Of a stretch of DNA of 64,000 bases, positions 41,648 through 62,295 are shown piece by piece. Every line of letters starts with the position of its first letter. Within the stretch, counting starts at the first letter, position 1. The notes under the pieces were generated by a model. The model made no database searches and was not told where the DNA came from. It saw only the letters and a program-made list of their open reading frames with translations. This stretch comes from an uncultured Candidatus Saccharibacteria bacterium (lineage in GTDB: Bacteria; Patescibacteriota; CPR2; UBA1875; CAIMLA01), in contig CAZQLQ010000001.1 in NCBI GenBank assembly GCA_964594415.1, forward strand, positions 159,265 through 223,264, in the 5' to 3' direction. Both the position numbers and the translations under genes were made by a program.

Positions 41648-41675
41648 TCAAGTTCTGTAATCTTTATGAATCATA

Positions 41676-41703: not shown

Positions 41704-41708
41704 AACTC

Positions 41709-47114: not shown

Positions 47115-47126
47115 TTAATTATCCAA

Positions 47127-47161
47127 AAGGGGCTTTGGGAGTACTCCCAAAGCCCTATTTT
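47127..47161 (+). terminator. Terminator after tig
   Basis: GGGGCTTTGGGAGTACTCCCAAAGCCC hairpin plus TATTTT. Confidence 0.65.
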
Positions 47162-47163
47162 CC

Positions 47164-47425
47164 ATGTCATCCCTGGCGCCATTCCAGGGATCTATATAAA
47201 AAGTATAGATTCCAAGGCTTGACACTTGGAATGACAATGGTGTGTCATCCTCGCGAACGCGGGGATCCCTCTTCTCCTTGTCATTCTGTCCGACGACTCC
47301 GATGAGTTCGTGTCGGACTCCGTCGGAGAGCGTAGTCGAAGAATCTCGTCCTCCCATGTCATTCCAAGAGTCAATCCTTGGAATCCATTTCTTTGCCTGC
47401 CCGAACCTTCAAGGGGTGGAATGAA
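47164..47425. repeat. Mosaic palindromic repeat cluster R1 (GTCATYC...GRATGAC unit family)
   Basis: Consecutive short hairpin units: GTCATCCCTGGCGCCATTCCAGGGATC, GATTCCAAGG..CCTTGGAATGACA, GTCATCCTCGCGAACGCGGGGATC, a 68-bp unit GTCATTCTGTCCGACGACTCCGATGAGTTCGTGTCGGACTCCGTCGGAGAGCGTAGTCGAAGAATCTCG, GTCATTCCAAGAGTCAATCCTTGGAATCC. Individual units recur in clusters R2-R8. Confidence 0.8.
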
Positions 47426-47495
47426 TTTAGTTTTGTATACTTAAATATTTATATTTATTTGCCTATAATAAGGAAGAAAATAAGCAAATACTATA

Positions 47496-47887
47496 TGGAT
47501 GAACAAATAAAAACAAGTGAGATTATTGCAAAGTATAGAGGCATATATGAGGGACTAAAGCCGATATATTCTCCTGCGATTGGTGAAAAAGTTTATTTTA
47601 ATATGCCAGGATTTAAGCATCTTATATTTAAAGGAAAACATAGACGACAAACTAAAGCTATCCTTAACCGTTTAGTGCTTATACCCTTGATTGCGCCTGT
47701 AATAATAAATTGTAAAGAAGAGACAGAAATTCGCATAAGAAAAGAAAATATTGATGGTAAGAAAATTAGGGTTACTTATTATGCGCTCGAGGCTCATGTT
47801 GGTAAAGATAGCGTTCGAGTAAGAGTAATAACGCGAAAAGTTGGCGAAAAAGGAAAACATTATTTTCAAAGCATAATGAAGTATTAA
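47496..47887 (+). CDS. Hypothetical protein
   Basis: ORF after the repeat cluster, followed by a clean terminator. The 5' part of ORF-track entry 47378 lies in the repeat and is discarded. Confidence 0.45.
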
Positions 47888-47918
47888 AAAAAGCGTTTCA
47901 AATGAAACGTTTTTTTTG
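47888..47918 (+). terminator. Intrinsic terminator
   Basis: AAAAAAGCGTTTCAAATGAAACGTTTTTTTT. Confidence 0.7.
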
Positions 47919-48029
47919 TGCTTGTTTCCGACTTAGGAGATTTCACCTTGGCCGGTTCTAGGGCAAGCCCCACAAGCACAACTTCATTATATATCATTAA
48001 GAGTTTTTTGTAAATCCACCATCTTGTCG

Positions 48030-48240
48030 CTTGCCCGAACCTGTAAGGGGCGGGAAGGGTCTCTTTTACTTGTCATCCTCGTGCTTGACACGGGGATCTC
48101 TCTTCTCCTTGTCATTCTGTCCGACGACTCCGATGAGTTCGTGTCGGACTCCGTCGGAGAGCGAAGTCGAAGAATCTCGAGATCCTTCATTACATTCAGG
48201 ATGACATTGTATTTATTGTTCGAGCGCAGCGAGAACTATT
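48030..48240. repeat. Mosaic palindromic repeat cluster R2
   Basis: Contains TGCCCGAACCTGTAAGGGGCGGG unit, GTCATCCTCGTGCTTGACACGGGGATC, the 68-bp GTCATTCTGTCCGACG...GAATCTCG unit and CATTCAGGATGACATTGTATTTATTGTTCGAGCGCAGCGAGAAC unit. Confidence 0.8.
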
Positions 48241-48266
48241 AGTGTATAATTTTATAAGAAGGAGGA

Positions 48267-48641
48267 ATGATGGATCCTGTAATAATTGGTGTTATGGCTA
48301 TGATAGTCTTTGCAGCCATTTTAGGAGTTTTTGAGTGGGGTTCTTCGATAAATGAAAAAGAATCATATAAGACACGAAAAAAGGAGTCTAACACACTTAT
48401 AACGTTCGGAGCGGTTTTGTTAGGTATAAGCTATATCTTCGCTACTTCGTTGACTTTTCAAATTTATAATTATACTTGTCGGTTTTTTATTTTACTTCTT
48501 GTTATTACTACAATTTTATTGATATATTTTCACAACTTATATAAAAATAAGCTCTATTTTTATGTTATTTTAGTCCTATTTTTTTTTATGCTTTTTGTTT
48601 TCTATATGACGGAACATGCTTTTGATGGAGCATTGATGTAA
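48267..48641 (+). CDS. Hypothetical polytopic membrane protein
   Basis: TATAAT -10 and AAGGAGG RBS upstream. Hydrophobic throughout. Confidence 0.45.
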   Translation: MMDPVIIGVMAMIVFAAILGVFEWGSSINEKESYKTRKKESNTLITFGAVLLGISYIFATSLTFQIYNYTCRFFILLLVITTILLIYFHNLYKNKLYFYVILVLFFFMLFVFYMTEHAFDGALM

Positions 48642-48686
48642 TTTTAAAAAATAAAAATTATATTAACTGTTAAAAAGGAGGGGATT

Positions 48687-48779
48687 ATGGTAAAAATAGG
48701 ACTTATTGTCATTGTACTAATAATAATCATCGGTGGAGCTTACGCATCATATTATATGAGCCAGAAGAAGGATAAGTAA
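48687..48779 (+). CDS. 30-aa single-TM peptide (not in ORF track)
   Basis: AAAAAGGAGGGG RBS 6 nt before ATG. MVKIGLIVIVLIIIIGGAYASYYMSQKKDK. Followed by hairpin terminator. Confidence 0.3.
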   Translation: MVKIGLIVIVLIIIIGGAYASYYMSQKKDK

Positions 48780-48799
48780 TTTCTTCTGTTCCTTTTTCT

Positions 48800-49215
48800 T
48801 GATAAAAAGGAACACAAAAATCAAGAAAAACTGAACTCTTTTTAAAAAAATTACCCCTCTTTCAATATATTAAAGGAACTAGATCCCTGGAATGGCGCCA
48901 GGGATGACATCGGTATGAGGTAATTTTTTTAAAATGTCGGGCTACCGAGCCGAGCAGTTTTTCGGAGGGGGATCCTCTGTCATCCTCGACTAGTCAATTG
49001 AAAAATATAATCAGTTGATCGGGGATCTAGATTCCCGCTTTCGCGGGAATGACAATATTTCCCCCTGTCATTCTGTCCGACGACTCCGATGAGTTCGTGT
49101 CGGACTCCGTCGGAGAGCGTAGTCGAAGAATCTCGTCCGCCTGTTGTCATTCCTAGTCGCAAGCTAGGAATCCATTCTTTATATAGATCCCTGGGTTGGC
49201 GCCAGGGATGACAAA
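48800..49215. repeat. Mosaic palindromic repeat cluster R3
   Basis: GATCCCTGGAATGGCGCCAGGGATGACA, GTCGGGCTACCGAGCCGAGCAGTTTTTCGG unit, GTCATCCTCGACTAGTC..., GATTCCCGCTTTCGCGGGAATGACA, the 68-bp unit, GTCATTCCTAGTCGCAAGCTAGGAATCC. The 5' about 170 bp is colinear with R8 (62095-62240). Confidence 0.8.
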
Positions 49216-49233
49216 TTGTACTATAATACCTAC

Positions 49234-49773
49234 ATGACCACATACAAAATCCACATTTTTGAAATAGACAAGGGCAGTGGGAAGCTGTATATAAATTTCA
49301 GCACGAAGGGCGAAACGGAATGCTTCGCGAAGTTTAAAAAGAAAGTAAAAAAGGGCAATAATCCGATATCTCTAACCAAATCCCTTGGGACTTCAGAAGC
49401 ATTCCCGAAACAGAAAGAAGCAATAATCGCAATCGACGAGCTGATCAATGAGCTGGAGAAAAAGGGCTTCGAGGTAATAGCAGGGCCACCGTTTCAGAAT
49501 AAGTATTATCAAATATACGTAATAGAGCTAAACAACTACCCACATACGGTTTATGTCGGGCAGACGAAATATTTCCCGGAGATTAGACTCGCACAACACC
49601 AGATAGGGTACAATTCGGCGAGTGTAGTCCGAAGGGCAGAAAGTGCAAAACTTCGCCCGGATCTCTTCGTCCATATCGAGGAGGCCAAAACGAAAGAAGA
49701 GGCGCTGTATCTAGAGTCAGAAGTCGCAGAATATCTCAAATGGAAAGGGTATAAGGTTTACGGCGGCCACTAA
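49234..49773 (+). CDS. GIY-YIG nuclease-domain protein
   Basis: C-terminal YQIYVIEL...TVYVGQTKYFPEIRLAQHQ...E matches GIY-YIG core (GIY, YIG, R, H/E). Start uncertain: ATG 49216 overlaps a TACTATAAT -10, so 49234 is chosen and may be leaderless. Confidence 0.55.
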   Translation: MTTYKIHIFEIDKGSGKLYINFSTKGETECFAKFKKKVKKGNNPISLTKSLGTSEAFPKQKEAIIAIDELINELEKKGFEVIAGPPFQNKYYQIYVIELNNYPHTVYVGQTKYFPEIRLAQHQIGYNSASVVRRAESAKLRPDLFVHIEEAKTKEEALYLESEVAEYLKWKGYKVYGGH

Positions 49774-49927
49774 TATTGTATAAATATTTTATACAATATT
49801 TGCAATTGTGCAAAATTATCGAATTTTTGTGCATAAATAATCGCTCTGTATAGACAAAAAATCAAAATAAAAAGGCTTTATTTTCAAATTTACAAGAGTA
49901 TAATATGGTTAGTAATGAAGGACTTGT

Positions 49928-50278
49928 ATGGACAAAATAGAAGATTTACAGCAAAAAGTTGCAAAATTTAGAGATGACAGAGATTGGCAGCAATTTCATA
50001 ATCCTAAAGACTTAGCGATTGCGATATCTATTGAGGCGTCTGAATTACTAGAATGCTTTAGATGGAAGTCTATAAAAGAAGTTGAAGAATTTATGAAATC
50101 TGAAAAGTCTACCAGCGTGGAAGAGGAAATGGCGGACGTTCTTATTTTGCTCTTAAATCTGGCCGATACAACTGGGATTGATGTCGTAAAAGCGGCAAAC
50201 GATAAACTAGATGCAAATAATAAAAAATACCCTGTAGAAAAATCTAAGGGTAGCGCTAAGAAGTATACGGAGCTTTAA
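49928..50278 (+). CDS. MazG-like nucleoside triphosphate pyrophosphohydrolase (small, single domain)
   Basis: EASELLECFRW and EEEMADVLILLLNLA helices typical of the all-alpha NTP-PPase (MazG/YpjD) fold. Confidence 0.7.
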   Translation: MDKIEDLQQKVAKFRDDRDWQQFHNPKDLAIAISIEASELLECFRWKSIKEVEEFMKSEKSTSVEEEMADVLILLLNLADTTGIDVVKAANDKLDANNKKYPVEKSKGSAKKYTEL

Positions 50279-52146
50279 TGAGATTATATGAGGCATCGCT
50301 GGCTGATTTTAATAGGGACATAACTTATAATAAAATTACTGATATTCTAACTGAAGCATTTAGTTTTTTTTATAAAAAAGAACCCACAATTGGCGAAAAA
50401 CTATCTTGGACAAATTCTTTGAGACAGGTAAGGGACGTTCTTACTGAAGCCAAATTAACAGACAATTACATAGCGATTGAAACTGAGGTGCCCTATACCT
50501 CAAGAAGAATAGATGTACTTTTGTTTGGTAGGAATCAACAAAAAGGCGATAACATCGTTCTTATTGAGCTTAAACAATGGGATAATTCTGGAGTGTTGGA
50601 TTCAGAAATAGATGGTAATGTTTATGTAAAATACAGAAACGGCTTCAGCGAAGAGCCTCATCCTAGTTTGAAAGTAGAGGGATATCATTATGGATTGATT
50701 GACAATTACTCAATTTTTGAAGAACAGCCGCCTGTAAGTTTAGTTTCTTGCGTATTTTGTCATAATTATTCAAGGACGGCAGCAAGTCAAGTCTTGTTCA
50801 ATAACAAATTTTCTGAATATACAGAAAAATACCCGGTTTTTACAAAAGAGCAGGTTCAGGAACTGGGGAATTACTTAACACTGAGGTTAGCCGGAGGCGC
50901 TGGACTAGAAGTCTTTAATAGATTTATAACGAGTAATATAAGGCCATCCAAGAAACTACTTGATCACACTTCAGATATGATTCACAAGCAGCAAATATTT
51001 AATCTTATTGATGATCAAATTACTGCATATAATGCCATTAGGTCAGTATCTAATAAGCTGGCAAAATTAGATGAAAAGTCAGTTTTTATTATAAAAGGTG
51101 GCCCAGGAACAGGGAAATCTGTTATTGCTTTGGAGGTTTTGGGCGAATTACTAAGGAAAGGTTTTAACGCTTTTTATTTAACTGGCTCAAAGTCATTTAC
51201 TGAGACTCTGAGGAAAATTGTGGGCGTAAGAGCGAAAGACAGAATTAAATATTTTAATAGTTACAGAGATTATAAGGGCCCGCAAATTGATGTGTTTGTT
51301 TGTGACGAGGCTCATCGCATTAGAGAAAAAAGCAAAAAGATGTTTGATAGAAATGAGATTATTGACCAGTTACCTCCTCAAATAGATGAGATCTTGAAAG
51401 CAAGTAAAATGTCTATCTTTTTGATAGACGAAAAACAAACAGTTCGACCGGATGAAGTTGGAAGTGTTAGTATGATCAAAGAGGCCGCGATTAGAAATGG
51501 AGTTCTGCAGAAGAATATAAGGGAATACGAATTAACGACCCAATTTAGATGTAATGGGTCTGATTCTTATATTCAATGGCTAGACAATACTCTGCAGCTA
51601 GCAGATACTGATAAAGTTACTTTAGAGAAAAGTGATAAATATGATTTTAAAATTTTTTATACACCCCAATTGCTTAAAAGTGCTATTGAAGAAAAAAACA
51701 AGATAAAAGAAAATTCTTCACGTCTCGTAGCGGGTTTTTGTTGGCCATGGAGCGAACCGCTTGAGGACGGCTCCTTGGTTGATGATGTTATCATTGGCGA
51801 TTTTAAGATGCCCTGGGAAGATAAGAGAAATTTTTGGAAATGGGCCACAGACAAAAGCGGCATGGAACAGGTTGGAACAGTATACACCTCCCAAGGTTTT
51901 GAATTTGACTATATAGGTGTTATCTTTGGTCCAGACTTAACTTATAATAACAAAACAAAAAATTGGGAAGCACACCCAGATCTTTCTCACGATTCTATGT
52001 TAATAAGAAATAACGACAAAATAAAAGAACATCTGAAAAATGTTTACAGAGTTTTAATGTCTAGGGGAATGAAGGGTTGTTATGTGTATTTTATGGATAA
52101 AGAAACTGAAAAATATTTTCGTGATAGGTTGAATCTAGCCGAATAG
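50278..52146 (+). CDS. DUF2075/Schlafen-like nuclease-helicase: N-terminal PD-(D/E)xK nuclease plus SF1-like P-loop ATPase
   Basis: IDVLLF...IVLIELKQW (D...ExK), Walker A GGPGTGKS, Walker B VCDEAHR, C-terminal SQGFEFDYIGVIFG. Translationally coupled to the MazG-like gene (stop/start overlap). Confidence 0.8.
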   Translation: MRLYEASLADFNRDITYNKITDILTEAFSFFYKKEPTIGEKLSWTNSLRQVRDVLTEAKLTDNYIAIETEVPYTSRRIDVLLFGRNQQKGDNIVLIELKQWDNSGVLDSEIDGNVYVKYRNGFSEEPHPSLKVEGYHYGLIDNYSIFEEQPPVSLVSCVFCHNYSRTAASQVLFNNKFSEYTEKYPVFTKEQVQELGNYLTLRLAGGAGLEVFNRFITSNIRPSKKLLDHTSDMIHKQQIFNLIDDQITAYNAIRSVSNKLAKLDEKSVFIIKGGPGTGKSVIALEVLGELLRKGFNAFYLTGSKSFTETLRKIVGVRAKDRIKYFNSYRDYKGPQIDVFVCDEAHRIREKSKKMFDRNEIIDQLPPQIDEILKASKMSIFLIDEKQTVRPDEVGSVSMIKEAAIRNGVLQKNIREYELTTQFRCNGSDSYIQWLDNTLQLADTDKVTLEKSDKYDFKIFYTPQLLKSAIEEKNKIKENSSRLVAGFCWPWSEPLEDGSLVDDVIIGDFKMPWEDKRNFWKWATDKSGMEQVGTVYTSQGFEFDYIGVIFGPDLTYNNKTKNWEAHPDLSHDSMLIRNNDKIKEHLKNVYRVLMSRGMKGCYVYFMDKETEKYFRDRLNLAE

Positions 52147-52152
52147 AGTAAA

Positions 52153-52839
52153 ATGAAAGATATTTTAAAATATACAGAATTAACATCGAAAGAAAACTTG
52201 CCACTTCAAAAAGGTATGAATTTCAGGCCTTCTGGAAAGTCGTATTCTATTTTGTTGATGTCGGTAAGAAAAAATTCTCCGTATAACGACGGATTTGATG
52301 AAAATAATAATCTTGTTTATGAAGGGCATGATGTTTCAAAAAGACAAGGTATTGATCCTAAAAAATTAGACCAGCCAATGTTTAATTTAACAGGAACACT
52401 TACTGATAATGGTAAATTTTATAAAGCAGCAGAGGATTACAAACTATCTAGAAAAAATAAAGAAAAAATTCAGGTTTATGAAAAAATAAATGATGGAATG
52501 TGGTCTGATAAGGGCATGTATTATTTAATTGATGCAAGAACGGAGTTTTCGGAGACAGAGAAAAGAAAAGTCTTTAAGTTTGTCTTATCCCCAATCGAAT
52601 CATATTCTACTGATATAGAGGAAATAGTTGAAGACTTTGAATTTTCCCGTAGAATTCCAACTGTTATTAAGCAGAAAGTGTGGCAAAGAGATAATGGCAA
52701 GTGTGTAGAATGCGGTTCAAAAGATGATTTGCACTTTGATCACATCATCCCATTTTCTAAAGGAGGGTCTAGTTTAACTGAAAGTAATGTTCAGATTTTG
52801 TGCAGAAAATGTAATTTAAAAAAATCAGCAAAAATTTAG
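52153..52839 (+). CDS. HNH endonuclease with about 150-aa uncharacterised N-terminal domain
   Basis: C-terminal CVECGSKDDLHFDHIIPFSKGG...CRKCNLKK = HNH with Cys4 zinc. N-terminal domain unassigned. Confidence 0.75.
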   Translation: MKDILKYTELTSKENLPLQKGMNFRPSGKSYSILLMSVRKNSPYNDGFDENNNLVYEGHDVSKRQGIDPKKLDQPMFNLTGTLTDNGKFYKAAEDYKLSRKNKEKIQVYEKINDGMWSDKGMYYLIDARTEFSETEKRKVFKFVLSPIESYSTDIEEIVEDFEFSRRIPTVIKQKVWQRDNGKCVECGSKDDLHFDHIIPFSKGGSSLTESNVQILCRKCNLKKSAKI

Positions 52840-52991
52840 TTATTAATCAGAATTAGGTAAAAATGGCACTGGAAAAAAAATCAGTCAAATAATGAGTTTA
52901 CATCTGTCCTTGCGGGGGTGGCAGGGGAGTATTTTAAGAGTAGATTAAAACCATCTTGTTTGCTATAATAACGAAAATATGAGGAAATCAG

Positions 52992-53987
52992 ATGACTACT
53001 AATCGAATAACCGACTTAATAACTGAGCTTGAAGAAGATAGAAAATCTAAGGTTATAGTTTACTTTACTAGTGACAAGCAACCAAACGAACATTTTGGAA
53101 CCCAAGTACATCCTGAGCAGCTTGTTTATTTTCGTAAAATCTTAGAAGAAATAAAAAAAACGGAAAGAATAACTCTGGTTTTGGATACTAGAGGAGGTGC
53201 AATAGATATGCCTTGGCCCCTAGTTAATTTGATTAGAGAATATTGTAAAAAATTTGAAGTAATTATTCTAGAAAAGGCACTTAGTGCTGGAACATTGATA
53301 GCCTTAGGTGCAGATAAAATTGTCATGCAACCATTTTCACATTTAAGCCCTGTTGATCCCGCCACCTTTATCCCAGATGGTAATTCAAGTATTCTAAAGA
53401 AACTCGAAATAGAAGACATAATAGGTTTTATAGATTTTGCTAAGGAAAAAGTTGGCATTGCAGAACAGTCTTCGTTAACAGAAGTTATGAAAGAGCTAAC
53501 TAAGGAAGTTCGTCCGACGTTATTGGGTTCAGTAAATAGAACATACGCACTGATTAGAAAACTTGCTAGACAGCTCCTGTCTTTGCATAATGGAAAATTA
53601 ACGGAAAAACAAGTAAACGAGATTACCGAGCATTTGACACAGAAGCTTTATTCTCATAGTTATTTAATAAATAGGAAAGAAGCAAAAGAAATTATCGGCT
53701 TTGGCAATATTATTGAAAATTCTTCGGAAAATACGAAAAGGATTTCAAAGGATATAATGGATTATTATAGAGAAGTCATGGAAATTGAAAAAGATTTTGA
53801 CCCATTATATTTACTCTCCGAAAAAGAAACAGTTGACTGCAAGGTAGTCGGGGCAGCCATACATAGCAATACAATGAGATATTCCTTCAGCCATAAGATT
53901 AGGCTTACAAAAATCCCAGATCCGGCTGGTAGGCTAAATATTAATTTCGAGATACTAGAAAGAAAGTGGTCGGAAGAGAAAATTTAA
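52992..53987 (+). CDS. ClpP/SppA-fold serine peptidase (SDH-family-like)
   Basis: VLDTRGGAID...ALSAGTLIALGADKIVM resembles ClpP-fold nucleophile region. C-terminal alpha-helical extension. Confidence 0.5.
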   Translation: MTTNRITDLITELEEDRKSKVIVYFTSDKQPNEHFGTQVHPEQLVYFRKILEEIKKTERITLVLDTRGGAIDMPWPLVNLIREYCKKFEVIILEKALSAGTLIALGADKIVMQPFSHLSPVDPATFIPDGNSSILKKLEIEDIIGFIDFAKEKVGIAEQSSLTEVMKELTKEVRPTLLGSVNRTYALIRKLARQLLSLHNGKLTEKQVNEITEHLTQKLYSHSYLINRKEAKEIIGFGNIIENSSENTKRISKDIMDYYREVMEIEKDFDPLYLLSEKETVDCKVVGAAIHSNTMRYSFSHKIRLTKIPDPAGRLNINFEILERKWSEEKI

Positions 53988-53996
53988 GGAGAAGTT

Positions 53997-54212
53997 ATGT
54001 TGAATACTTGTAACACGGTGTGTACGTCTAATAACAAAATTGTTAATTTTGAAAACTTAACTGCCAGGGGTGGCAATGTCCCAAAGTATAAAGTAGTCGA
54101 ACATTACACTATAAATAAGTCAAGTGTATTGATTCAACATTATGATGAGGATTCAGACCAAAATATTGACTCAAAGATTAATAGAAAGTTTTTTGAAACA
54201 AGAAATGTTTAA
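53997..54212 (+). CDS. Hypothetical small protein
   Basis: ORF only. Confidence 0.3.
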   Translation: MLNTCNTVCTSNNKIVNFENLTARGGNVPKYKVVEHYTINKSSVLIQHYDEDSDQNIDSKINRKFFETRNV

Positions 54213-54215
54213 TAT

Positions 54216-54710
54216 ATGTACATTCCCAGTCACGAACTAGATAGAGGTAAATTTTATCAAGGGGATGTCGTAAAAGATTTCCCCTTTTTTGTATTGTCCA
54301 ACTTAGAAGATCAATTATCTATATTAACAAATACAAGAGAGGGTACGCTAGAAATTAAATCTAAACTTATAGATGTTATGATTCTTTCGCAAACTTGTGA
54401 TATACAAAGAAGAGACCAGATTATTATTGCTCCAATAGTCCCAATGCAACCGAGTATTGATAATGGTGACCTCGGAGTAAATATTTTGAACAATATTAAA
54501 AACCGTAAGATAAACTACTTGTTTTATTTACCGGAAAGTCCCGGAATAATTCCTGATTCATACTGTAATTTTCAGTTGATCTATTATGTTTCGCCCTTAT
54601 TATTAAATAATTTTATCAACAACAAAATTACATCTTTAAGTGATTGGGGTAGGCATCACCTTAGTTGGTCTCTTAGTAACTATTTTGGAAGACCAATTTT
54701 AAGTAAATGA
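54216..54710 (+). CDS. Hypothetical protein
   Basis: ORF, tightly packed after previous. Confidence 0.4.
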   Translation: MYIPSHELDRGKFYQGDVVKDFPFFVLSNLEDQLSILTNTREGTLEIKSKLIDVMILSQTCDIQRRDQIIIAPIVPMQPSIDNGDLGVNILNNIKNRKINYLFYLPESPGIIPDSYCNFQLIYYVSPLLLNNFINNKITSLSDWGRHHLSWSLSNYFGRPILSK

Positions 54711-54765
54711 CGAATACCAAATAATAAGCGACTTTTTGAGAAATAAATATTTTAAAAACATAAAG

Positions 54766-55083
54766 ATGTATATAATGCGACTTCAAAAATCTAATTTAGA
54801 AAAAGCGGAAGCTTTTGTGGAGTCGGTTGAGTGGATATTTGCTAAGACTTATGCAAAGACGGCTCCGCATGAATATATAGTGAAGAGATATCTGCCCAAA
54901 GAAAAGTGGGACGAATTTTTGTGGTTTGCCCGGCTTATCAGAGAAGAAGGGTATGATGGGAAATTTTATGACCATACCTATAGATACCTGGACATCGATG
55001 GTAAGAAATATTGGACTATGGATGAGGATGTCGAAATGACTGAGCTGATAAATAGGTGTGATGTCGGGGATGAGTATGAATAA
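54766..55083 (+). CDS. Hypothetical protein
   Basis: ORF. ATG at 54766 preferred over 54736. Confidence 0.35.
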   Translation: MYIMRLQKSNLEKAEAFVESVEWIFAKTYAKTAPHEYIVKRYLPKEKWDEFLWFARLIREEGYDGKFYDHTYRYLDIDGKKYWTMDEDVEMTELINRCDVGDEYE

Positions 55084-55522
55084 TTTAACTAAAGAAATTT
55101 TTGATGCGATAAAAAACGGAAAAAATGTTTTTCTTGTTGGGGCTACGGATAGCGGTAAAAGCTGGTTTTTACAAAATGAGATTATCCCTTTTCTAAGGGA
55201 AAATAATTATAAGGTTTGTTATCTTGAGGATAGTCTAGCCGATAGTCATATTTCAGAAAACTGCGATATTGTTATCGCCGATGAATATGAAACATTTGTC
55301 GATAAAGACTTTCTAGAAAAAAGACACCCCGAAGAAGTCCCATACTACTCTGGTTCATATATAAAACAGGTCAATAATTGTCAGAAAACATTAGGAAACG
55401 CAAGGTTTCCTGTAGTTTTTGTTATAACAAGAAATGAAGACGTGGAAATCGATTATCTAGTGAATAAGATAAGTGAGGAATATTCAGATTCTTTGGTTGC
55501 CCTGAAGATGACTAGGAAATAG
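55058..55522 (+). CDS. Small P-loop NTPase
   Basis: Walker A GATDSGKSW and Walker B IVIADEYE. Confidence 0.5.
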   Translation: MMSGMSMNNLTKEIFDAIKNGKNVFLVGATDSGKSWFLQNEIIPFLRENNYKVCYLEDSLADSHISENCDIVIADEYETFVDKDFLEKRHPEEVPYYSGSYIKQVNNCQKTLGNARFPVVFVITRNEDVEIDYLVNKISEEYSDSLVALKMTRK

Positions 55523-55605
55523 ATCCCAGGGTTTCCTCTAGAAGCGGACAAGTGCGACCAGGAATGACACAAATTCGTCAGGGATGATATACTCTATATT
55601 AGAGT
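55523..55605. repeat. Repeat cluster R4 (short)
   Basis: GATCCCAGGG..., CCAGGAATGACACAAATTCGTCAGGGATGAT: same GGAATGAC / GGGATG unit ends. Confidence 0.6.
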
Positions 55606-55621
55606 TAATTGGAGGGAAAAT

Positions 55622-55897
55622 ATGAAAAAAATAATAAGAATTTTTTCAATTTGCTTAGTGGTAACTTATCTTTTAGTGATTTCTTATCAAGCGTTTATTT
55701 GGCAACGTTATAAAACCCCAACTTTTATGAGCGATAGAGTGTTTTGTGATCTTGAAAGTAAACAAATACCTCCCACAAATACAGTATACGAAAAGGTATT
55801 TGGCAAAGCCTGTACTTGTTGTGGAGCGCCTACGCCCTTAACTTTGGCTGATGGAGTAAGGGGCTTTACTCAATTAATTTTTCTTGATTTTGAATAA
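55622..55897 (+). CDS. Small secreted/membrane protein with CTCCGAP motif
   Basis: GGAGGG RBS. N-terminal TM. Confidence 0.4.
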   Translation: MKKIIRIFSICLVVTYLLVISYQAFIWQRYKTPTFMSDRVFCDLESKQIPPTNTVYEKVFGKACTCCGAPTPLTLADGVRGFTQLIFLDFE

Positions 55898-55929
55898 AAT
55901 TAGTTTCAAGATCGTTTCTTCTAATAAAT

Positions 55930-56090
55930 AGGTATGATGACGGGGATGAGTATGAGTGGGGGATAGGGAATGAGATTCTTCCCGCCCCTTTCAGGTTCGG
56001 GCAGACGTCAGGCTCCCTTCGACTAACGCTCTCCGACGGAGTCCGACACGAACTCATCGGAGTCGTCGGACAGAATGACAAAAAGGAATA
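55930..56090. repeat. Repeat cluster R5 (contains reverse-complement of the 68-bp unit)
   Basis: CGACTAACGCTCTCCGACGGAGTCCGACACGAACTCATCGGAGTCGTCGGACAGAATGACA is the reverse complement of the unit in R1-R3. Also CCCGCCCCTTTCAGGTTCGGGCAG is the reverse complement of TGCCCGAACCTGAAAGGGGCGGG. Confidence 0.8.
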
Positions 56091-56093
56091 AAT

Positions 56094-56585
56094 ATGAATG
56101 AGAATTACATAAATGAATTAGAAGAATACATGATTTCGGTGTTGAAGGCTGGGAATAAGGGTAAGCCTCTTTCGATGCTCGCAAAATACAATTGCAGTGA
56201 GGTTTCGAGGCTCGTCGGTCTGAAGGTTCTTGAGTATCTAGGTGAAGATAGTAAGCCGTTTATACTAAAGGGTGAGGTGACTAAGAACGGAATAGATAAG
56301 GATAATATCCATGACATTTTAGGCTTTCTTGACGTTGATTCCTCAAAGTTCGTTCTTATTGATCCGACTATCTGGCAATTCTTCCCGGAAAGTGAAGAAA
56401 TTTTCTTGGGCGAATTTGAAGCGCTTGATGATGCAATTGCTTTCTGTGCTGATTTCTATGAAGGGGAGTGGAACTTTTCGGAATATGTAGACAAAGAGAG
56501 TGAAGACGTAAATGAGATGATGAAAATCATTAAGATGAATTGTGGCCAAGCCTCTGATTGGGAGAGAGATACAACCCAGGATTAG
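56094..56585 (+). CDS. Hypothetical acidic protein
   Basis: ORF between repeat clusters. Confidence 0.45.
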   Translation: MNENYINELEEYMISVLKAGNKGKPLSMLAKYNCSEVSRLVGLKVLEYLGEDSKPFILKGEVTKNGIDKDNIHDILGFLDVDSSKFVLIDPTIWQFFPESEEIFLGEFEALDDAIAFCADFYEGEWNFSEYVDKESEDVNEMMKIIKMNCGQASDWERDTTQD

Positions 56586-56589
56586 TAGG

Positions 56590-56830
56590 GGATGTATTGT
56601 TCGAGCTAAGGGAGAACTATTTATATTTAGGACTTCTCTCTGCGCTCGAAGAATAAAAATAGGGGAGGGGGCTAGATTCCAAACATCCTTCTTCGCCAAG
56701 GCTACGAAAGGACAAGTACGATTTGGAATGACACAGGGGAGTGAGGATTAGATTGCCGCGCTTCCAACTTCGCTAAAGCTTCGCTAGACAAGTCGCTCGC
56801 AATGACGATGAGGCGTGCAAGCAGGGGAAT
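56590..56830. repeat. Repeat cluster R6
   Basis: TATTGTTCGAGCTAAGGGAGAACTATTT, CTTCTCTCTGCGCTCGAAGAATAAAAAT and GATTTGGAATGACA units shared with R2, R7 and R8. Confidence 0.7.
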
Positions 56831-56885
56831 CGGGATTAATACAAAAAAATTTGGCCGGCTTTCATAACGCTTTTGTATATATACG

Positions 56886-58511
56886 TTATGTTAGCCGGCC
56901 ATTTATTAATTCTATTGTTCGGTTTGGACGGATAGAGTCTATGAAATCTCTGTCGTGTGAAACAACGACGAAGGTTTCGGGATAAGTCTGAAGGGCTTTT
57001 TCTAGCTCTTCGATAGCTGGGATGTCCAGATGGTTTGTCGGTTCATCCAGGAGAAGTAAATTGGTGTTTTTATAGACTAGTGTTGCAAGAAGCAGTCTGG
57101 CACGTTCCCCAGGACTTAGACTCTTACCTTTTTGTTGGAGCTTTTCTTGGTCGAAGTTGAAGCTATGCAAGATGGTTCGCAACCTAGAGTCGTCGATAGG
57201 GCCGTCTTCTGAGGCAAGCTTCTTGGCGTTCTCGAGGGCTGAGATTTCTTCGTCAGGCAAACTCTTAAATTGGTCTATGAGGCCAATTTTCACTCCGTTC
57301 CCGAAACGAACATCTCCTTCTTCTGGGCTTTGCACTCCTTCGATAATCCGCAGTAGAGTCGTCTTACCACTGCCATTTGGGCCAGTGATTACGATTCGAT
57401 TTCCTCGCTCAATCATGAGATCGAGCGGACCGACATCGATCTTGGGATAATGGATTGTAACGTTTTTAAGCTCGACTAGAATATTGCTCACTTCGCCCTG
57501 GTGTCCGCTGAAGGCAAACTTCAGATTGATCTCTTTGAGCGGTTTCTGCGGTATCGCTAGCTGTTCTTCGCGAGTAGCTGTAGCTTTGGCGGTTGCAGAC
57601 AATCTACCTGCAGCCTTCTCTTTGGCCGAGTTTCTTCCTAACTTTTCAGTATCCGAAGCTTTCGAATTTGAATCTGCTCTCCTGGCTTCGTTGTGCAGTC
57701 TGCGACTTGTATCGCTTAGTCTTTTTCTCTCTTCCAGATATCTTTCGTAAGCCTCTTTCACTGATTTTTTTTGCGCTTCCCTCGCTTCTAAATATTCTTC
57801 GTATCCAAGCGAGTAGAGATCGATTCTAGATCCATCCGAGAGTAGTTCGGCAATTTTGGTCGTAACTGTTTTAAGCATTCGTCTGTCGTGAGTAACAATT
57901 ACAACAGCCGAGTTTGTGGAAAGCAGGAACGCTTCAAGAATCTCGATGCCTTCTAGATCCAAGTCGTTAGTCGGCTCGTCTAGCAAAAGAATGTCGAACT
58001 GCGACATAAGAATGGCCGCCAGCATTACGCGCTTGCGTTCACCGCCTGATAGGGTGCTGACAGGCTGTTCCAACAGACGAGTGTCGAGGGTAATTTTCTG
58101 CAATACTTTTTGAAGCCTCGTATCGAATGAATAAGTTCCAAGGTGTTCAACTTTTTCCATTGCTTGTTCGAGTCGGGAAAGAGATTCTTTGCTGGCATCA
58201 ACTTTCTCAGAAGCTTGTTCGAACTCAAGCTCGGCATCCATTATGCCAGTGAGCTTTTTGATGAATTCAACAACAGGTAGTTCGAGATGTTCTCTCGGTT
58301 CTTGAGGAAGGTAACCAACTATTAGATTGTCTCTGATTACTTTTCCAGACGACGGAAGGATTTCTCCAGCAATGATGCGGAGCAACGTGGTTTTTCCGGT
58401 TCCGTTAGGACCGATAAGTCCGATTCTTTCGCCCTCATTTATGATAAGCGAAATTCCTTTTAGAACCTCTCTAGTCTCATATTCGAATCGTACGTCGTCT
58501 ACTTTCAGCAT
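56886..58511 (-). CDS. ABC-F family ATPase (two ABC domains, charged interdomain linker, no TM domain)
   Basis: GPNGTGKTTLLRI / LSGGERKRVMLAAIL and GPNGSGKTTLLRI / LSPGERARLLLATL. R/K/E-rich linker between them. Confidence 0.85.
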   Translation of the reverse strand: MLKVDDVRFEYETREVLKGISLIINEGERIGLIGPNGTGKTTLLRIIAGEILPSSGKVIRDNLIVGYLPQEPREHLELPVVEFIKKLTGIMDAELEFEQASEKVDASKESLSRLEQAMEKVEHLGTYSFDTRLQKVLQKITLDTRLLEQPVSTLSGGERKRVMLAAILMSQFDILLLDEPTNDLDLEGIEILEAFLLSTNSAVVIVTHDRRMLKTVTTKIAELLSDGSRIDLYSLGYEEYLEAREAQKKSVKEAYERYLEERKRLSDTSRRLHNEARRADSNSKASDTEKLGRNSAKEKAAGRLSATAKATATREEQLAIPQKPLKEINLKFAFSGHQGEVSNILVELKNVTIHYPKIDVGPLDLMIERGNRIVITGPNGSGKTTLLRIIEGVQSPEEGDVRFGNGVKIGLIDQFKSLPDEEISALENAKKLASEDGPIDDSRLRTILHSFNFDQEKLQQKGKSLSPGERARLLLATLVYKNTNLLLLDEPTNHLDIPAIEELEKALQTYPETFVVVSHDRDFIDSIRPNRTIELINGRLT

Positions 58512-58599
58512 TACTTATCACCTCCTTTATTTATAATAACAAGGTACGCAACTGACATCAACCGAGTTCCTGCATTTTACAATAAAAAGCTATTTTTGT

Positions 58600-59808
58600 C
58601 TAGGTACACTTAGTGTTGTAATATTTTATAAAAGCAGAGATTCCATAAGGATCTTTGCTATAAACTTCGCCGTTAAATAAGTAAGCGCAGGCTTGGCATT
58701 CGGCTAATCCTTGTTTCCGAAAGTTAATAAAAGTCTCATTTTCTCGCCAATTCTTTACAAAGTTTTTATCAAATAAAGGCAGGTCTTCCTTTTTGTAATA
58801 ATCGGCTTCGTATAACAAGGCGCACGGCAACATATAGCCGTCTACGTCGATAGTTAGACCGCTAACTCCGGCGCGACAAACATCTCTCTTTACCCCCCTT
58901 AGGAATCCCTCGATTGCTGCGTTGGTAACGCCTGTCTTGACACCTTTTTGCTGTAGAGCGTATATCTCCATAATAAAATCAAAATATTTTTCTGGCTCAA
59001 TTACTAGGTCTTGATGCGAGCCTTTGAACGGCTTGAATAAATTGAAGTTGCAAGGACAGTCATGCTCCTGTGCAAATTCAATTAATTTTTTGTAATTTGG
59101 ATAGTTAAAATTGTTTAGAGTGCAGGAAATCTCGACATAAAAACCTTCTTTGCGGAGCTTGCTGATCGATTTCTCTACCTTTTCGAAGACTCCTTTTCCT
59201 CTAATCTCGTCGTTTATTTCTTTTATTCCTTCAAGGCTGACCAGGAAGGCTGGTTTGTTCTCCAATTTTTTTAATTTTTCGATAGTATCGTCATCTATTA
59301 ATGTGGCGTTTGTAATAATATTTACAGCGAATCCGTAATAATCGCAGGCTCTTTCTATGATTTTCATTGCGTCTTCGTGGAGAAAGATTTCTCCGCCGAC
59401 AAGATTGAGCATAAAAACTTTCTCTTTTGCCAGTAATGAAAGCCTATGGTCTATTTTCTCATAGCTAAGCAGTTTTGTGTAATCACCCTGAAAGCAGTGT
59501 TTGCATCTTAGATTGCAAGTGTTGCTGACCTGTATTTCTCCAGAAAGGGGAGTGTCAAAATAGTCTTTGTCTGGTACGGGATAGCTTAGCTGATCTTCTT
59601 TTAGGCTTTGCTTTATGTCTTCCAAGAAAGATTGTAGCTTCTCGGCATCTATCTTCAGCTCTTTTGATATTTCTTCAGCCGATTCCTCCATGTTGAAAAA
59701 CAGGTCTAGAATCCTAGACCCATCTTCGTTCACAAATACCAATTTCCTTATTTCCGGGAAAAAGGCTACCGTGTAGTCAGCATCTTTTCTTAATACTACT
59801 GTTTTCAC
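58600..59808 (-). CDS. Radical SAM / SPASM-domain peptide-modifying enzyme (GTG start)
   Basis: CNLRCKHCF (CxxxCxxC) radical-SAM cluster. C-terminal Cys-rich SPASM-like region (CPCNFN..., CRAGVSGLTIDVDGYMLPCALLYEAD). Confidence 0.85.
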   Translation of the reverse strand: MKTVVLRKDADYTVAFFPEIRKLVFVNEDGSRILDLFFNMEESAEEISKELKIDAEKLQSFLEDIKQSLKEDQLSYPVPDKDYFDTPLSGEIQVSNTCNLRCKHCFQGDYTKLLSYEKIDHRLSLLAKEKVFMLNLVGGEIFLHEDAMKIIERACDYYGFAVNIITNATLIDDDTIEKLKKLENKPAFLVSLEGIKEINDEIRGKGVFEKVEKSISKLRKEGFYVEISCTLNNFNYPNYKKLIEFAQEHDCPCNFNLFKPFKGSHQDLVIEPEKYFDFIMEIYALQQKGVKTGVTNAAIEGFLRGVKRDVCRAGVSGLTIDVDGYMLPCALLYEADYYKKEDLPLFDKNFVKNWRENETFINFRKQGLAECQACAYLFNGEVYSKDPYGISAFIKYYNTKCT

Positions 59809-59814
59809 GATAAT

Positions 59815-59958
59815 TTAGATTTTCTTTAATCTTTTTTCCGTTTTTGTGACTTTGTTTTTGGCCTCAAACTCTTGAACGCAAGGCTTGCCGCCGCAGCTTC
59901 GGAAGCAACATCCAGTCTCGCTATTTTCAGTGCTCTTTTTGATAACCTTAGGTTCCAT
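59815..59958 (-). CDS. Candidate RiPP precursor peptide, 47 aa, four Cys (not in ORF track)
   Basis: Hand translation of minus strand: MEPKVIKKSTENSETGCCFRSCGGKPCVQEFEAKNKVTKTEKRLKKI. GGGGGA RBS 7 nt upstream. Stop lies 6 nt before the rSAM/SPASM gene start. Confidence 0.5.
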   Translation of the reverse strand: MEPKVIKKSTENSETGCCFRSCGGKPCVQEFEAKNKVTKTEKRLKKI

Positions 59959-60243
59959 CTTTTTGTCCCCCAATTAATTATTGGCCGTATTGTATCTTTG
60001 AAATCTTTTGTTGTCAATAGTAATTTTCAGGTGAATACTTTCGCTACCCTTTATCATTTAGTCAAAGCGAAAATTCTTGAGGTCTATTACTTTTGGGTAA
60101 GCAGAGCGAGTATGAGAGGACTCTCGTTTTTTTGTTGAGGAAGGGTGTTTTTTGTGCTATAATCACGCCGGAATGTAAGGAGGATTCTACTATCTTGTAG
60201 ATTCCTTTTCGTTTAGGAACTGAAAAATAAAGGGGGTTACTAC

Positions 60244-60489
60244 GTGCTGGTAATCAGAAAAGTACTTGTCAAGATGTTCGGTTGGAAGCCGGTAGTAAAA
60301 AAGACGCATATCTTTGAGTGCTACGAAGCCGGTTCCCATAACGGGTTTTCATTGTGCGGAATATATGTTTCCGATAAGGATTCCTTAAGTGAAAAAGACG
60401 CAAAAGAATTAACGGGTAAAGAAGCGTCTACTTGCAAGAAGTGCGAAAAGATTTTGGAAAAAAGGCTCAAGGATGAGAAAAAGCAATAA
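60244..60489 (+). CDS. Small basic Cys4 protein, tandem paralog 1 (GTG start)
   Basis: KTHIFECY...SLCG...TCKKCEKILEKRLK. AAAGGGGG RBS. Confidence 0.5.
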   Translation: MLVIRKVLVKMFGWKPVVKKTHIFECYEAGSHNGFSLCGIYVSDKDSLSEKDAKELTGKEASTCKKCEKILEKRLKDEKKQ

Positions 60490-60503
60490 AGGAGGGATAT
60501 CTG

Positions 60504-60728
60504 ATGTACGTTGAATGGAAAACATTTGCAAGAATTTCTGGCAGTGATCTGGTTGTGAGAAAAACACATGCATTTGGGCCGCGTGGAAGATTGTGTTCGT
60601 GTTGCGGTCTTGTGGCGAGATCGAATGAAATGATACATGAACAAGTAGCCAGGGATGTGCTAAAGAAGCCGCCCAAAAGATGCAAAAAATGCGAAGCTGC
60701 CGTGAAGAAATTGCGCAAGCAAAGATAA
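60504..60728 (+). CDS. Small basic Cys4 protein, tandem paralog 2
   Basis: KTHAFGPRGRLCSCCG...RCKKCEAAVKKLRK. Identical AAAGGAGGGATATCTGATG leader to paralog 3. Confidence 0.5.
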   Translation: MYVEWKTFARISGSDLVVRKTHAFGPRGRLCSCCGLVARSNEMIHEQVARDVLKKPPKRCKKCEAAVKKLRKQR

Positions 60729-60744
60729 GCCAAAAAGCAGAAAA

Positions 60745-61029
60745 TTGACGGCAAAGGAGGGATATCTGATGAATTACGAAGCAAGAGTTCTTGTGAGGAT
60801 TTCCAGTTGGGAACTAATAGTTGGCAGGTCGCATTTAGTAACCGGGCAATATAACAATTATTCTCTTTGTGGACAACACTTGGGTTCAGGTAAATCGCTG
60901 AGCGAAAACGAAGCAAAGAGAGTGCTCAAAAAGCCGGTTGTCAGATGTAAGACATGCGAGAAAATCCTCGCAAAGAAAAAAGCCGAAGAAAAAGAACAGG
61001 CAAAGAAAAACAGAGCCAAAAGAGGCTGA
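60745..61029 (+). CDS. Small basic Cys4 protein, tandem paralog 3
   Basis: RSHLVTGQYNNYSLCG...RCKTCEKILAKKK. Confidence 0.5.
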   Translation: MTAKEGYLMNYEARVLVRISSWELIVGRSHLVTGQYNNYSLCGQHLGSGKSLSENEAKRVLKKPVVRCKTCEKILAKKKAEEKEQAKKNRAKRG

Positions 61030-61138
61030 TCTTAAAGAGCTAATATCAAAAGGTATTTCAACATTCACTATCTAATCACCAAAGCCCACCCGAGGTAGCA
61101 ATATTGCTTCCAAGGGTGGGTTTTTACTTTGGTACTTT

Positions 61139-61412
61139 TGTCACTCTGAGCGAAGTCGAAGAGTCTAGAGATCCTTCACTACGTTCAGGATGACATTGTA
61201 TTTATTGTTCGAGCAGCGAGAGAACCATTTTATTGAAAACTTCTCACTCCGTTCGAAGAATAAAATCCACGTCATCCCGAGCTTGTCGAGGGATCTCGGT
61301 CTTATAGATCCTTCGAATCGCTCCGCTCCCTCAGGATGACAAATAGTATATCGTTCGGGGCGAAGCAGAGAGATAGGTAGATCCCCGCGTCCGCGAGGAT
61401 GACATAAAATCT
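61139..61412. repeat. Repeat cluster R7
   Basis: GTCACTCTGAGCGAAGTCGAAGAGTC, CATTCAGGATGACATTGTATTTATTGTTCGAGCAGCGAGAGAAC, CTTCTCACTCCGTTCGAAGAATAAAAT, GTCATCCCGAGCTTGTCGAGGGATC, CCTCAGGATGACA, GATCCCCGCGTCCGCGAGGATGACA. Confidence 0.8.
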
Positions 61413-61446
61413 CGTAATTTTCTCATTTTTGTGCTAAAATTACGCA

Positions 61447-61965
61447 ATGAAAATGCCACAAAAACTTTTTACCGAACATTTGCTATTAAGGCCAGTCTCT
61501 CCAAAGTATTCGAGAGAAGTATTCACGAATTTTACCGACGAAGTAACGGCTATGATGTATCCTTCTACTCCTAAGGAAGAGCAAGAGACAATTGATTATC
61601 TTGTTGAAGCAGAAGAAAAGATGAGAGAAGGTATAAATTATCAAGTGTTAATTTTTCTTAAAGACACGGATGAATTTATAGGAGGAGCAGGAGTTCATCA
61701 TATTGACACTAAAACTCCTGAGTTTGGAATTTGGATAAAAAAATCTGCTCAAGGGCATAAATATGGTAGAGAAGCAGTTGTGGGACTAAAAGACTGGGCA
61801 GATAAGAATCTAGAGTATGATTATTTAAGATACCCGGTAGTAACTAGCAATACACCTAGTAGAAAAATTCCGGAGTTTCTCGGTGGAAAAGAAGTAAATG
61901 AATTTGATACAGAAAAGCAGGACGGAACTATAATGAAAATGGTAGAATATTATATTTTTAAATAG
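61447..61965 (+). CDS. GNAT family N-acetyltransferase (RimJ/RimL-like)
   Basis: TEHLLLRP start typical of RimL-type GNATs. Central acetyl-CoA-binding-like block. Preceded by TGTGCTAAAAT -10. Confidence 0.7.
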   Translation: MKMPQKLFTEHLLLRPVSPKYSREVFTNFTDEVTAMMYPSTPKEEQETIDYLVEAEEKMREGINYQVLIFLKDTDEFIGGAGVHHIDTKTPEFGIWIKKSAQGHKYGREAVVGLKDWADKNLEYDYLRYPVVTSNTPSRKIPEFLGGKEVNEFDTEKQDGTIMKMVEYYIFK

Positions 61966-61969
61966 CATC

Positions 61970-62225
61970 TATTGTTCGAATAAAATGAGAACTATTTTTA
62001 CTACAGACTTCTCTCTACGTTCGAAGAATAAAAATTGTCATTCTGAGCTTGTCGAAGAATCTAATCTGTTTTCTGCCACTTTTCCTTGATGAAAAGTGAC
62101 TCAAAAATCAAGAAAAACTGAACTCCTTTTTAAAAGATTATCCTTTTTTCGATATTCTGTAAGGTTTTCCTACAAGGAATAACTTTTTAAAATAGTCGGG
62201 CTACCGAGCCGAACAGTTTTTCGGG
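61970..62225. repeat. Repeat cluster R8
   Basis: CTTCTCTCTACGTTCGAAGAATAAAAAT, GTCATTCTGAGCTTGTCGAAGAATC, then a block colinear with R3 (CAAAAATCAAGAAAAACTGAACTC...GTCGGGCTACCGAGCCGAACAGTTTTTCGG). Confidence 0.8.
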
Positions 62226-62295
62226 GGATAGAACTACCTCGCAAAAGTTGCATTTTTGTGCTAAAATAGGTGCACTTTAACTATTGGAGGACTTT

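Follow-up and report, generated by a model that had tools for sequence, protein, structure and literature searches.

The tig-clpP island and its repeat arrays

The 64-kb stretch of DNA analyzed here (the window) comes from the metagenome-assembled genome of a bacterium of the Patescibacteria, i.e. of the Candidate Phyla Radiation (CPR), with a G+C content of about 38%. From the end of tig (at 47114) to clpP (62296-62901), which is followed by rpoB, there extends an accessory-gene island of about 15 kb, and within it eight arrays of short palindromic repeats (R1 to R8) span positions 47161-62231. These arrays hold 24 tagged units (12 on the plus and 12 on the minus strand, 919 nt in total), all of them extragenic and all inside this one island. 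Judged by tag, stem and tail, the units are repetitive extragenic palindromes (REPs) of the already described CGTC/TGTC-tagged class and not a new family. Together with longer repeats they build mosaics resembling NIMEs, the intergenic mosaic elements of Neisseria, and we give a probability of about 0.6 to the explanation as a whole, namely that these are NIME-like mosaic arrays of CGTC/TGTC REPs which are modular and probably mobile. The remaining 47 kb of the window consists of tightly packed housekeeping genes and a run of unannotatable open reading frames (ORFs) after a tRNA-Leu gene.

The octamer TGTCATYC occurs 24 times on the two strands of the window, where 100 shuffles gave 3.3 +/- 1.75 copies and never more than 8. 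Of the 24 copies, 21 fall inside the island arrays, and CGTC variants of the tag stand at 56806 and 61270. In a scan for perfect stems preceded by GTCAY, units with 8-bp stems were confined to 47166-56732; positions 1-47114 contain no such unit, though spacers of at least 100 nt total 2.6 kb there. The arrays contain a composite unit (a basic unit carrying a 40-nt hairpin within its loop) in four copies, a hairpin of 66-70 nt four times (as copies or halves), a CTTGCCCG hairpin three times and a 165-nt block twice. Shared motifs are TGCCCGAACCT..AAGGGG and the hairpin arm ACTTCTC..TCGAAGAATAAAA, with three occurrences each, and an 82-nt repeat is common to R2 and R7. Among neighboring units tail-to-tail and tandem pairs prevail (six each, with two head-to-head). 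All eight clusters and the units described for them in the initial annotation were found in place, including its 24-28-nt units (located at 47166, 49146 and 61271), its block of about 150 bp common to R3 and R8 (present, at 165 nt) and its 68-bp unit of R1-R3, reversed in R5, which corresponds to the composite of 66-69 nt at all four sites. Its comparison of the clusters with mosaics of REPs and bacterial interspersed mosaic elements (BIMEs) was apt as well, the arrays sharing units in both orientations.

Array R1 (47161-47430) lies 3' of the tig terminator (47129-47156) and contains units at 47166-47192(+), 47208-47235(-), 47244-47267(+) and 47358-47385(+), a composite at 47280-47345(+) and a CTGCCCGAACC..GGGG hairpin at 47397-47419. 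R2 (47918-48245) combines a CTTGCCCG hairpin (48031-48053) and units 48072-48098(+) and 48181-48205(-) with a composite (48111-48176(+)) and the left half of a long TTGTTCGAGC..GAGAAC hairpin (48206-48240). R3 (48780-49213) begins with a 165-nt structured block (48780-48970) that is split by unit 48882-48908(-), and goes on with units 48979-49027(+), 49030-49053(-), 49146-49172(+) and 49186-49212(-) and a composite at 49067-49132(+). R4 (55520-55600) is a unit with a ACTTGTCC.. loop insert (55522-55568(-)) next to a truncated unit remnant, and R5 (55898-56081) comprises a CTGCCCG hairpin (55975-56004(-)) and a composite with a degenerate right arm (56011-56079(-)). In R6 (56590-56807) the long hairpin is complete, with 69 nt (56592-56660, z-score -4.3), and is accompanied by two units that carry ACTTGTC.. 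inserts in their loops (56675-56732(-) and 56751-56806(-)). R7 (61139-61404), located 3' of a terminator at 61081-61124, has units 61140-61165(+), 61170-61194(-), 61271-61295(+), 61307-61340(-) and 61380-61403(-) and a long hairpin at about 61195-61265. Finally, R8 (61967-62231) is made of a long hairpin (61967-62035), unit 62037-62061(+) and the second 165-nt block (62067-62231), which directly adjoins the clpP promoter on its upstream side. R5 also includes a gene fragment, as 55921-55955 is a 35-nt copy (91% identical) of 55045-55079, the 3' end of ORF 54736-55083.

Seven predicted ORFs lie in these repeats: 47115-47357(-), 47192-47374(-) and 47242-47424(+) in R1, 47987-48190(-) and 48024-48242(+) in R2, 48980-49243(-) in R3 and 55866-56081(-) in R5. 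They overlap one another on both strands and share the same repeat-derived peptides, and one representative peptide had no homologue among 5.8 billion proteins, so that the initial suspicion that they are artefacts was justified.

Structure of the units and their assignment to CGTC-tagged REPs

The basic unit is asymmetric. After an unpaired (T/C)GTC tag comes a stem opening with A-T and T-A pairs; its loop varies, and the C(C/T)A tail that follows the stem reads CCA or CTA in nearly all units catalogued from the window and its relatives. Stems of 8-9 bp starting from the AT of GTCAT are present in units 47166, 47208, 47244, 47358, 48072, 48882, 49030, 49146, 49186 and 61380; such units fold as ....((((((((....)))))))).... 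with the four tag bases unpaired and a tail of 3-4 nt, and their z-scores range from -1.7 to -5.7, falling below -3 in seven of the nine tested. Units of the 'GAGC..GTCGAAG' type (61140, 61271 and 62037) have stems of about 5 bp with an internal loop and z-scores near 0, which makes them weak hairpins. Units 47244, 49030 and 61380 have loops of 4 nt, units 48072 and 49146 loops of 5 nt, and units 47166, 47208 and 47358 loops of 7-8 nt; those of the composites measure 20-45 nt. In a set of 32 distinct units from the window and relatives, picked by tag and tail alone, stem positions 3-8 were paired in 86% of cells, compared with 58% when the partners were permuted (maximum 69% in 1000 permutations), and each stem position showed several pair types. 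The hairpin character proposed at the outset is thus borne out for the units with 8-9-bp stems and not for the GAGC..GTCGAAG units; the presumed G(A/G)ATGAC end is nothing but units read in reverse orientation.

The class of CGTC-tagged REPs was defined by Di Nocera, De Gregorio and Rocco in 2013, and its tag is often TGTC (PMC3733652). Its members have loops of 4-5 nt, a 3-nt tail near CCA, and stems and loops that are heterogeneous within a genome; they are mostly extragenic and spread genome-wide, with head-to-head dimers tending to predominate and clusters rare, and they flank no tyrosine transposase gene in any species examined (PMC3733652). The known hosts are Proteobacteria, Chlorobi, Bacteroidetes, Spirochaetes and Thermotogae, and CPR bacteria are not among them; dRS3 of Neisseria is CGTC-1 of this scheme, and the Rickettsia palindromic elements (RPEs) RPE-4 and RPE-6 are CGTC families as well (PMC3733652). 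Because the tag, the 8-9-bp stem with its A-T/T-A opening and the CCA/CTA tail of our units match the published definition, we assign them to this class, and the suggestion of the initial annotation that the family is novel has to be abandoned, all the more so as one unit fits dRS3 (PMC1797815). Heterogeneous stems and loops and the lack of a linked transposase gene among the tested window ORFs are further points of likeness; on the other hand, clusters are the rule in the window and rare in the published families.

The comparison with Neisseria may be carried further. dRS3 is a 20-bp inverted repeat of consensus ATTCCCNNNNNNNNGGGAAT, i.e. ATTCCC-N8-GGGAAT, which serves as an integration site for a filamentous phage with its own transposase; in NIME arrays dRS3 hairpins stand between repeat sequence (RS) elements of 50-150 bp that belong to more than 100 families (PMC1797815). 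Such arrays adjoin variable genes, vary between strains in unit number, and were stated in 2007 to be absent outside Neisseria (PMC1797815). In the window, ATTCCCGCTTTCGCGGGAAT at 49031-49050 fits the dRS3 consensus exactly and has TGTC and CTA flanks, the whole unit 49030-49053 reading TGTC-ATTCCCGC-GAAA-GCGGGAAT-CTA; it is the one exact unit here, the others being variants, and relatives have further fits. The arrays also share with NIMEs the alternation of hairpins with longer repeats, the variable genes alongside and a unit number that differs at syntenic sites. They depart from NIMEs in that most units have other stems (ATCCC, ATTCCAAA, ATTGCG), longer loops and hairpins nested in the loops, in that the host is a Patescibacteria member with the G+C content given above, and in that no filamentous phage or IS110-type transposase is found nearby.

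Extragenic tagged palindromes in mosaics with other short motifs are also known from the REP/BIME system of Escherichia coli and the REPIN-RAYT system of Pseudomonas (RAYT, REP-associated tyrosine transposase). However, those GTAG systems own a dedicated single-copy RAYT gene flanked by REPs, and the tag in the window is TGTC/CGTC. No Rfam family was matched at the gathering or E-value thresholds; the sole signals were of E ~1 to Francisella FtrB. Plasmid and phage records contained no match to R1, and viral contigs none to the 40-nt element or to one common unit; three matches of viral contigs to the core of the 165-nt block were rejected as chance A-rich similarity. A scan of genome contigs with TCGTGTCGGACTCCGTCGGA returned a single match, unrelated GTCGGA iterons in a proteobacterial metagenome-assembled genome (MAG), but the leading T of this query excludes the variant found in the relatives. 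A literature search by unit sequence retrieved nothing relevant. Readings as CRISPR repeats, integron sites or attL/attR sites were rejected, given the irregular spacing, the absence of an integrase from the tested window ORFs and an R3/R8 block that is found inverted and at other loci too.

Nested inserts, relatives and module edges

The 40-nt hairpin TCCGACG..CGTCGGAG of the R1 composite occupies 47289-47328(+), at GTCATTCTG^AG of its host unit, and further copies are located at 48120-48159(+), 49076-49115(+) and 56031-56070(-). At 14 of 15 sites in the window and in relatives it stands at GTCATTSYG^AG, i.e. after GTCATT(CT/GC)G and before AG, and its hosts are several different unit sequences. 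Exact empty hosts, GTCATTGCGAGACCTTGAAATGG and GTCATTGCGAGGAAGAATGACGA, are present in the related contig L021, and one of them matches the position of a filled site in another relative, L002. The junctions of the element are ambiguous by at most 1 nt, with no clear target duplication. Three units of the window and four of relatives have a second type of insert (ACTTGTCC..) at the apex of the loop. Whole units come and go too: the arrays that follow tig in L021 and L002 are collinear and differ by entire units, a 30-nt unit being present 5' of the 165-nt block in L021 and missing at the aligned position of L002. At two filled unit sites the junctions are ambiguous by 2 nt (TA/AT), and the hairpin arms could count as terminal inverted repeats. 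In R3, unit 48882-48908 splits a copy of the 165-nt block of which six other aligned copies are intact. As this unit interrupts only one of seven block copies and the target of the 40-nt element is fixed, insertion is favored, and on such sequence comparison it appears more economical than deletion. The earlier idea of mobile modules agrees with these filled and empty sites, the units behaving as discrete insertable pieces.

Insertion into hairpin DNA or next to it, at a short target that is fixed and shows no obvious duplication, is known from small palindrome-associated transposable elements (PATEs, of IS200/IS605 type) and from the loop-targeting elements IS1397, IS621 and IS1111-attC. The 40-nt element at GTCATTSYG^AG is similar to them in this respect, and differs in being only 40 nt long, non-coding and a single two-stem hairpin. 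A three-hairpin relative of it (CTCCGACG..GTCGG, TCCGACGACTCCGACGAGTGTCGGACTCCGTCGGAGAG, TCCCGAC..GTCGGGA) is located inside genes on other CPR contigs: in TsaE (L014, 3051-3575(-)), in gyrA (L013, 1052-4189(-)) and in a 244-aa ORF (L010, 6604-7338(+)). In TsaE it is in frame, and no downstream start codon would preserve the conserved fold; in gyrA it lies in the 5' region. Intragenic copies of this sort are another resemblance to CGTC REPs and Rickettsia RPEs.

Copies of the 165-nt block were found in relatives at 6886-7050(+) and 14957-15121(-) of L002, 1927-2089 of L007, 111-273 of L011, 1310-1474 of L021 and, in diverged form, 11407-11562 of L018. The block contains a 5' hairpin and is closed by a long-range helix, GAAAAACTG / CAGTTTTTC, which covaries to GAAAAATTC / GAATTTTTC, and RNAalifold detected compensatory changes in 16 of its 30 predicted pairs. 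It had no match in Rfam and could be an RS-like repeat, a miniature inverted-repeat transposable element or a small RNA. Units bracket it in L021, L002 and L011, and in the window as well as in these three contigs units flank both the block and the 66-70-nt hairpin.

A 21-mer of the composite unit matched eleven metagenome contigs. Seven of them, from one sample, carry the same repeat vocabulary around unrelated genes, among them SipW/TasA-like genes and one that encodes a surface protein of 1319 aa and has arrays at its two flanks, and they have no homologue of any island gene. Since mosaics surround unrelated genes there, the repeat family is dispersed in this population, and the question posed at the start, whether the units are confined to one locus, is answered for the relatives by these flanks of unrelated genes on the relatives' contigs. 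In L002, whose Tig is 77% identical, tig and clpP are held apart by a different island with the same repeat family, encoding an EcoO109I-type restriction enzyme, a C5 methyltransferase and an AAA_13 ATPase; in L021 (Tig about 76% identical) tig is followed by one array and then by an intact GIY-YIG gene. tig is thus common to all three, clpP and a few island genes to the window and L002, and the array after tig is present in all three with different unit content. Homology blocks of the window and L002 stop at R1, R5, R6 and R8, in agreement with the proposal that clusters delimit gene cassettes, for the arrays stand at junctions of modules that differ between relatives; many gene junctions of the island (e.g. 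49774-49927 and 52840-52991) have no unit. Right after its first array (at 7229-7265) L002 retains 37 nt that are 92% identical to the 3' end of the GIY-YIG gene (49735-49771 in the window), and this remnant together with the intact gene of L021 points to gene decay at an array edge. More distant relatives (L015-17 and L023-28) show a compact layout of tig, one gene and rpoB without units at the syntenic site, with the exception of L018, which has units, two additional small ORFs and the 165-nt block in its diverged form at this place. The family is therefore patchy among lineages, and single units are present in some relatives and absent from others at matching sites, the point to which the proposed check in sister genomes referred.

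As for the genes of the island, the GIY-YIG gene (49237-49773) is followed by a candidate defense cassette (49928-55522) with a MazG-like protein, a Schlafen/DUF2075-type helicase (weak PADLOC matches to PDC-S41, AbiO and Nhi), an SRA-like and HNH protein, an SDH ClpP-like protease and small ORFs without assignment. This cassette is not in L002, where the restriction-modification system and the AAA_13 ATPase take its place. The island also encodes a small P-loop protein, a GNAT protein and, on the minus strand, ABC-F, radical-SAM/SPASM and small peptide genes. These last three form a module (56886-59973, minus strand) like those for ribosomally synthesized and post-translationally modified peptides; one of its edges adjoins array R6, and in L002 it is inverted and relocated to 1754-4829 on the plus strand, upstream of trx, with 70% identity. 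Three paralogous tandem genes at 60244-61029 encode small Cys-rich proteins that have paired Cys motifs and measure 81, 74 and 94 aa; they had no match in Pfam, and homologues are present in L002 at 13077-13561. A promoter-like motif with an extended -10, TTTTTGTGC(T/A)(A/T)AAAT, is common to 49809-49838, 61411-61440 and 62238-62267, i.e. 5' of the MazG-like gene, the GNAT gene and clpP. Outside the island, the tRNA-Leu gene (33254-33340) is followed by about 9 kb (33449-42467) with some 13 co-oriented ORFs without Pfam match and no TGTC units inside, after which stand one phage-tail-lysozyme-like and one SIR2 gene. We regard 33449-42467 as a second insertion, because the outgroups L015, L018 and L023 pass from RecG and HHH straight to trx and tig.

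Probable mobility of the modules and alternative explanations

According to the explanation that we prefer, CGTC/TGTC REP hairpins interleave with longer repeats which would act as the RS elements do in Neisseria, this role being taken by the 165-nt block, the 66-70-nt TTGTTCGA..TCGAAGAA hairpin and the CTTGCCCG hairpin. The arrays would grow as small modules are added into or beside existing modules, with units of about 30 nt coming and going, the 40-nt hairpin landing in the loop of a host unit at GTCATTSYG^AG and the ACTTGTCC.. insert at the loop apex. The modules would then be mobile DNA of a non-autonomous kind, dependent in trans on an enzyme whose gene lies elsewhere, and by analogy with known systems a hairpin-acting IS110-like or HUH enzyme seems the most plausible mover. 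Once established, the arrays may serve as recombination substrates and so help to swap defense-type cassettes, as proposed for NIMEs.

Several observations weigh against this explanation. All 24 window units lie in one island, and dispersal was demonstrated for loci of relatives and not for the genome of the host itself. Many loops in the window are of 7-8 nt or composite, in contrast to the 4-5 nt of CGTC REPs, and the neighboring pairs (6 tail-to-tail, 6 head-to-tail, 2 head-to-head) do not repeat the head-to-head excess of that class. Among the tested ORFs of the 64-kb window, none had a transposase or recombinase domain. Filled and empty sites could in principle also arise by precise deletion of palindromes. 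Lastly, the edge of the radical-SAM module at 60017 has no unit, and a role of the arrays in promoting recombination fits the data through co-location only.

A local source of mobility might be sought in the GIY-YIG gene, acting as a mobilizing nuclease, yet it has three homologues only in the database, and this makes it no general mobilizing agent; the most distant of them (L020) has no units nearby. Another candidate, raised by the initial annotation, is a RAYT encoded elsewhere in the genome and moving the units as REP/REPIN elements. On one hand, short tagged palindromes in both orientations would suit such an enzyme, inverted pairs could make REPIN-like doublets (e.g. 47205-47236 with 47357-47388, at 91% complementarity), and the fixed-site insertion of the 40-nt element without clear duplication recalls the IS200/IS605-type insertion 3' of a short target. 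On the other hand, the GTAG tag is absent and the tags are TGTC/CGTC, no Y1_Tnp domain occurs among the tested window ORFs, and the stems are far more diverse than in typical REPIN populations of a single RAYT; moreover, CGTC REPs do not flank tyrosine transposase genes (PMC3733652). We thus consider the RAYT suggestion distinctly unlikely. Nor do the arrays behave much like attC analogues at which a site-specific integrase would exchange integron-like cassettes. It is true that the hairpins between the mostly co-oriented modules are imperfect, conserved at the ends and variable in the middle, and that cassette content differs between relatives, but no tyrosine recombinase was found in the tested ORFs of the island or window, the ends are TGTCAT../..ATCCA instead of RYYYAAC/GTTRRRY, a junction may have up to six units in both orientations or, in many cases, none, and at other places such units stand beside ordinary genes of the chromosome. 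The integron reading is largely refuted and keeps a very small probability.

A different view is that the repeats are functional RNA or DNA structures (3'-end stabilizers, weak terminators or protein-binding sites), maintained by selection and spread by local duplication or gene conversion. The position of arrays 3' of unidirectionally transcribed genes would be expected then, as would terminator-like units with pyrimidine- or T-rich tails (48075-48097, 49149-49171, 47361-47384 and 47232-47209) and an excess of terminator-like sites (27, with 12.2 +/- 4.1 expected). The covariation of the stems and the compensatory changes described above for the 165-nt block point the same way, the T-G pairs of ATCCTCGC/GCGGGGAT stems would be tolerable as G-U in RNA, and Di Nocera et al. 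argued that many REPs act as RNA. However, the true terminators are separate and stand 5' of the arrays (47129-47156, 47885-47918 and 61081-61124), the units are divided equally between the strands, up to six per spacer exceed the need of any single regulatory role, the spacers of the other 47 kb lack them, and nesting of a 40-nt element at a fixed position in several hosts is hard to obtain by duplication. As an account of the whole this is rather unlikely, though for part of the material a role as structural RNA is still a serious alternative. Finally, one could think of a mere local duplication or an artefact of MAG assembly, as all window units lie within one 15-kb stretch and contigs of the related population break at repeats (short contigs L004-L011). 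This is refuted by independent assemblies, and we give it practically no credit: the same units, composites and 165-nt block appear in JGI and ENA assemblies and in the present NCBI MAG, in different gene contexts, and the units differ by compensatory stem changes and are not copies of one segment.

The NIME-like mosaic of CGTC/TGTC REPs could also be turned around, so that the arrays would be sites of a dedicated hairpin-specific recombinase which both seeds units and captures or exchanges cassettes, thereby building defense islands in streamlined CPR genomes, the 40-nt element, which in other CPR lineages also enters essential genes in frame, being a by-product of this enzyme. We hold this to be improbable, but if true, the system would match integrons in function, and likewise the recombinase that has long been postulated for NIME arrays.

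What appears to be new is the CPR host, the fixed-site nesting of a 40-nt element with its empty sites, the presence or absence of single units of about 30 nt at matching sites and the location of arrays at most homology breakpoints with relatives whose defense genes differ. The genomes of CPR bacteria, about 1 Mb in size, are generally seen as densely packed, and the CGTC REP class is here extended to this radiation, as is a NIME-like array architecture to bacteria outside Neisseria. On the practical side, such arrays yield spurious ORFs in annotation and break metagenome assemblies. Two aspects seem to us especially worth following, the fixed-site 40-nt hairpin and the link to a defense hotspot. 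The nesting of this hairpin, together with its exact empty sites, is clean evidence for tiny palindromes as discrete insertable modules, a behavior that bears on how CGTC REPs, a class without a known transposase, spread; and the arrays mark a variable hotspot of defense genes between tig and clpP.

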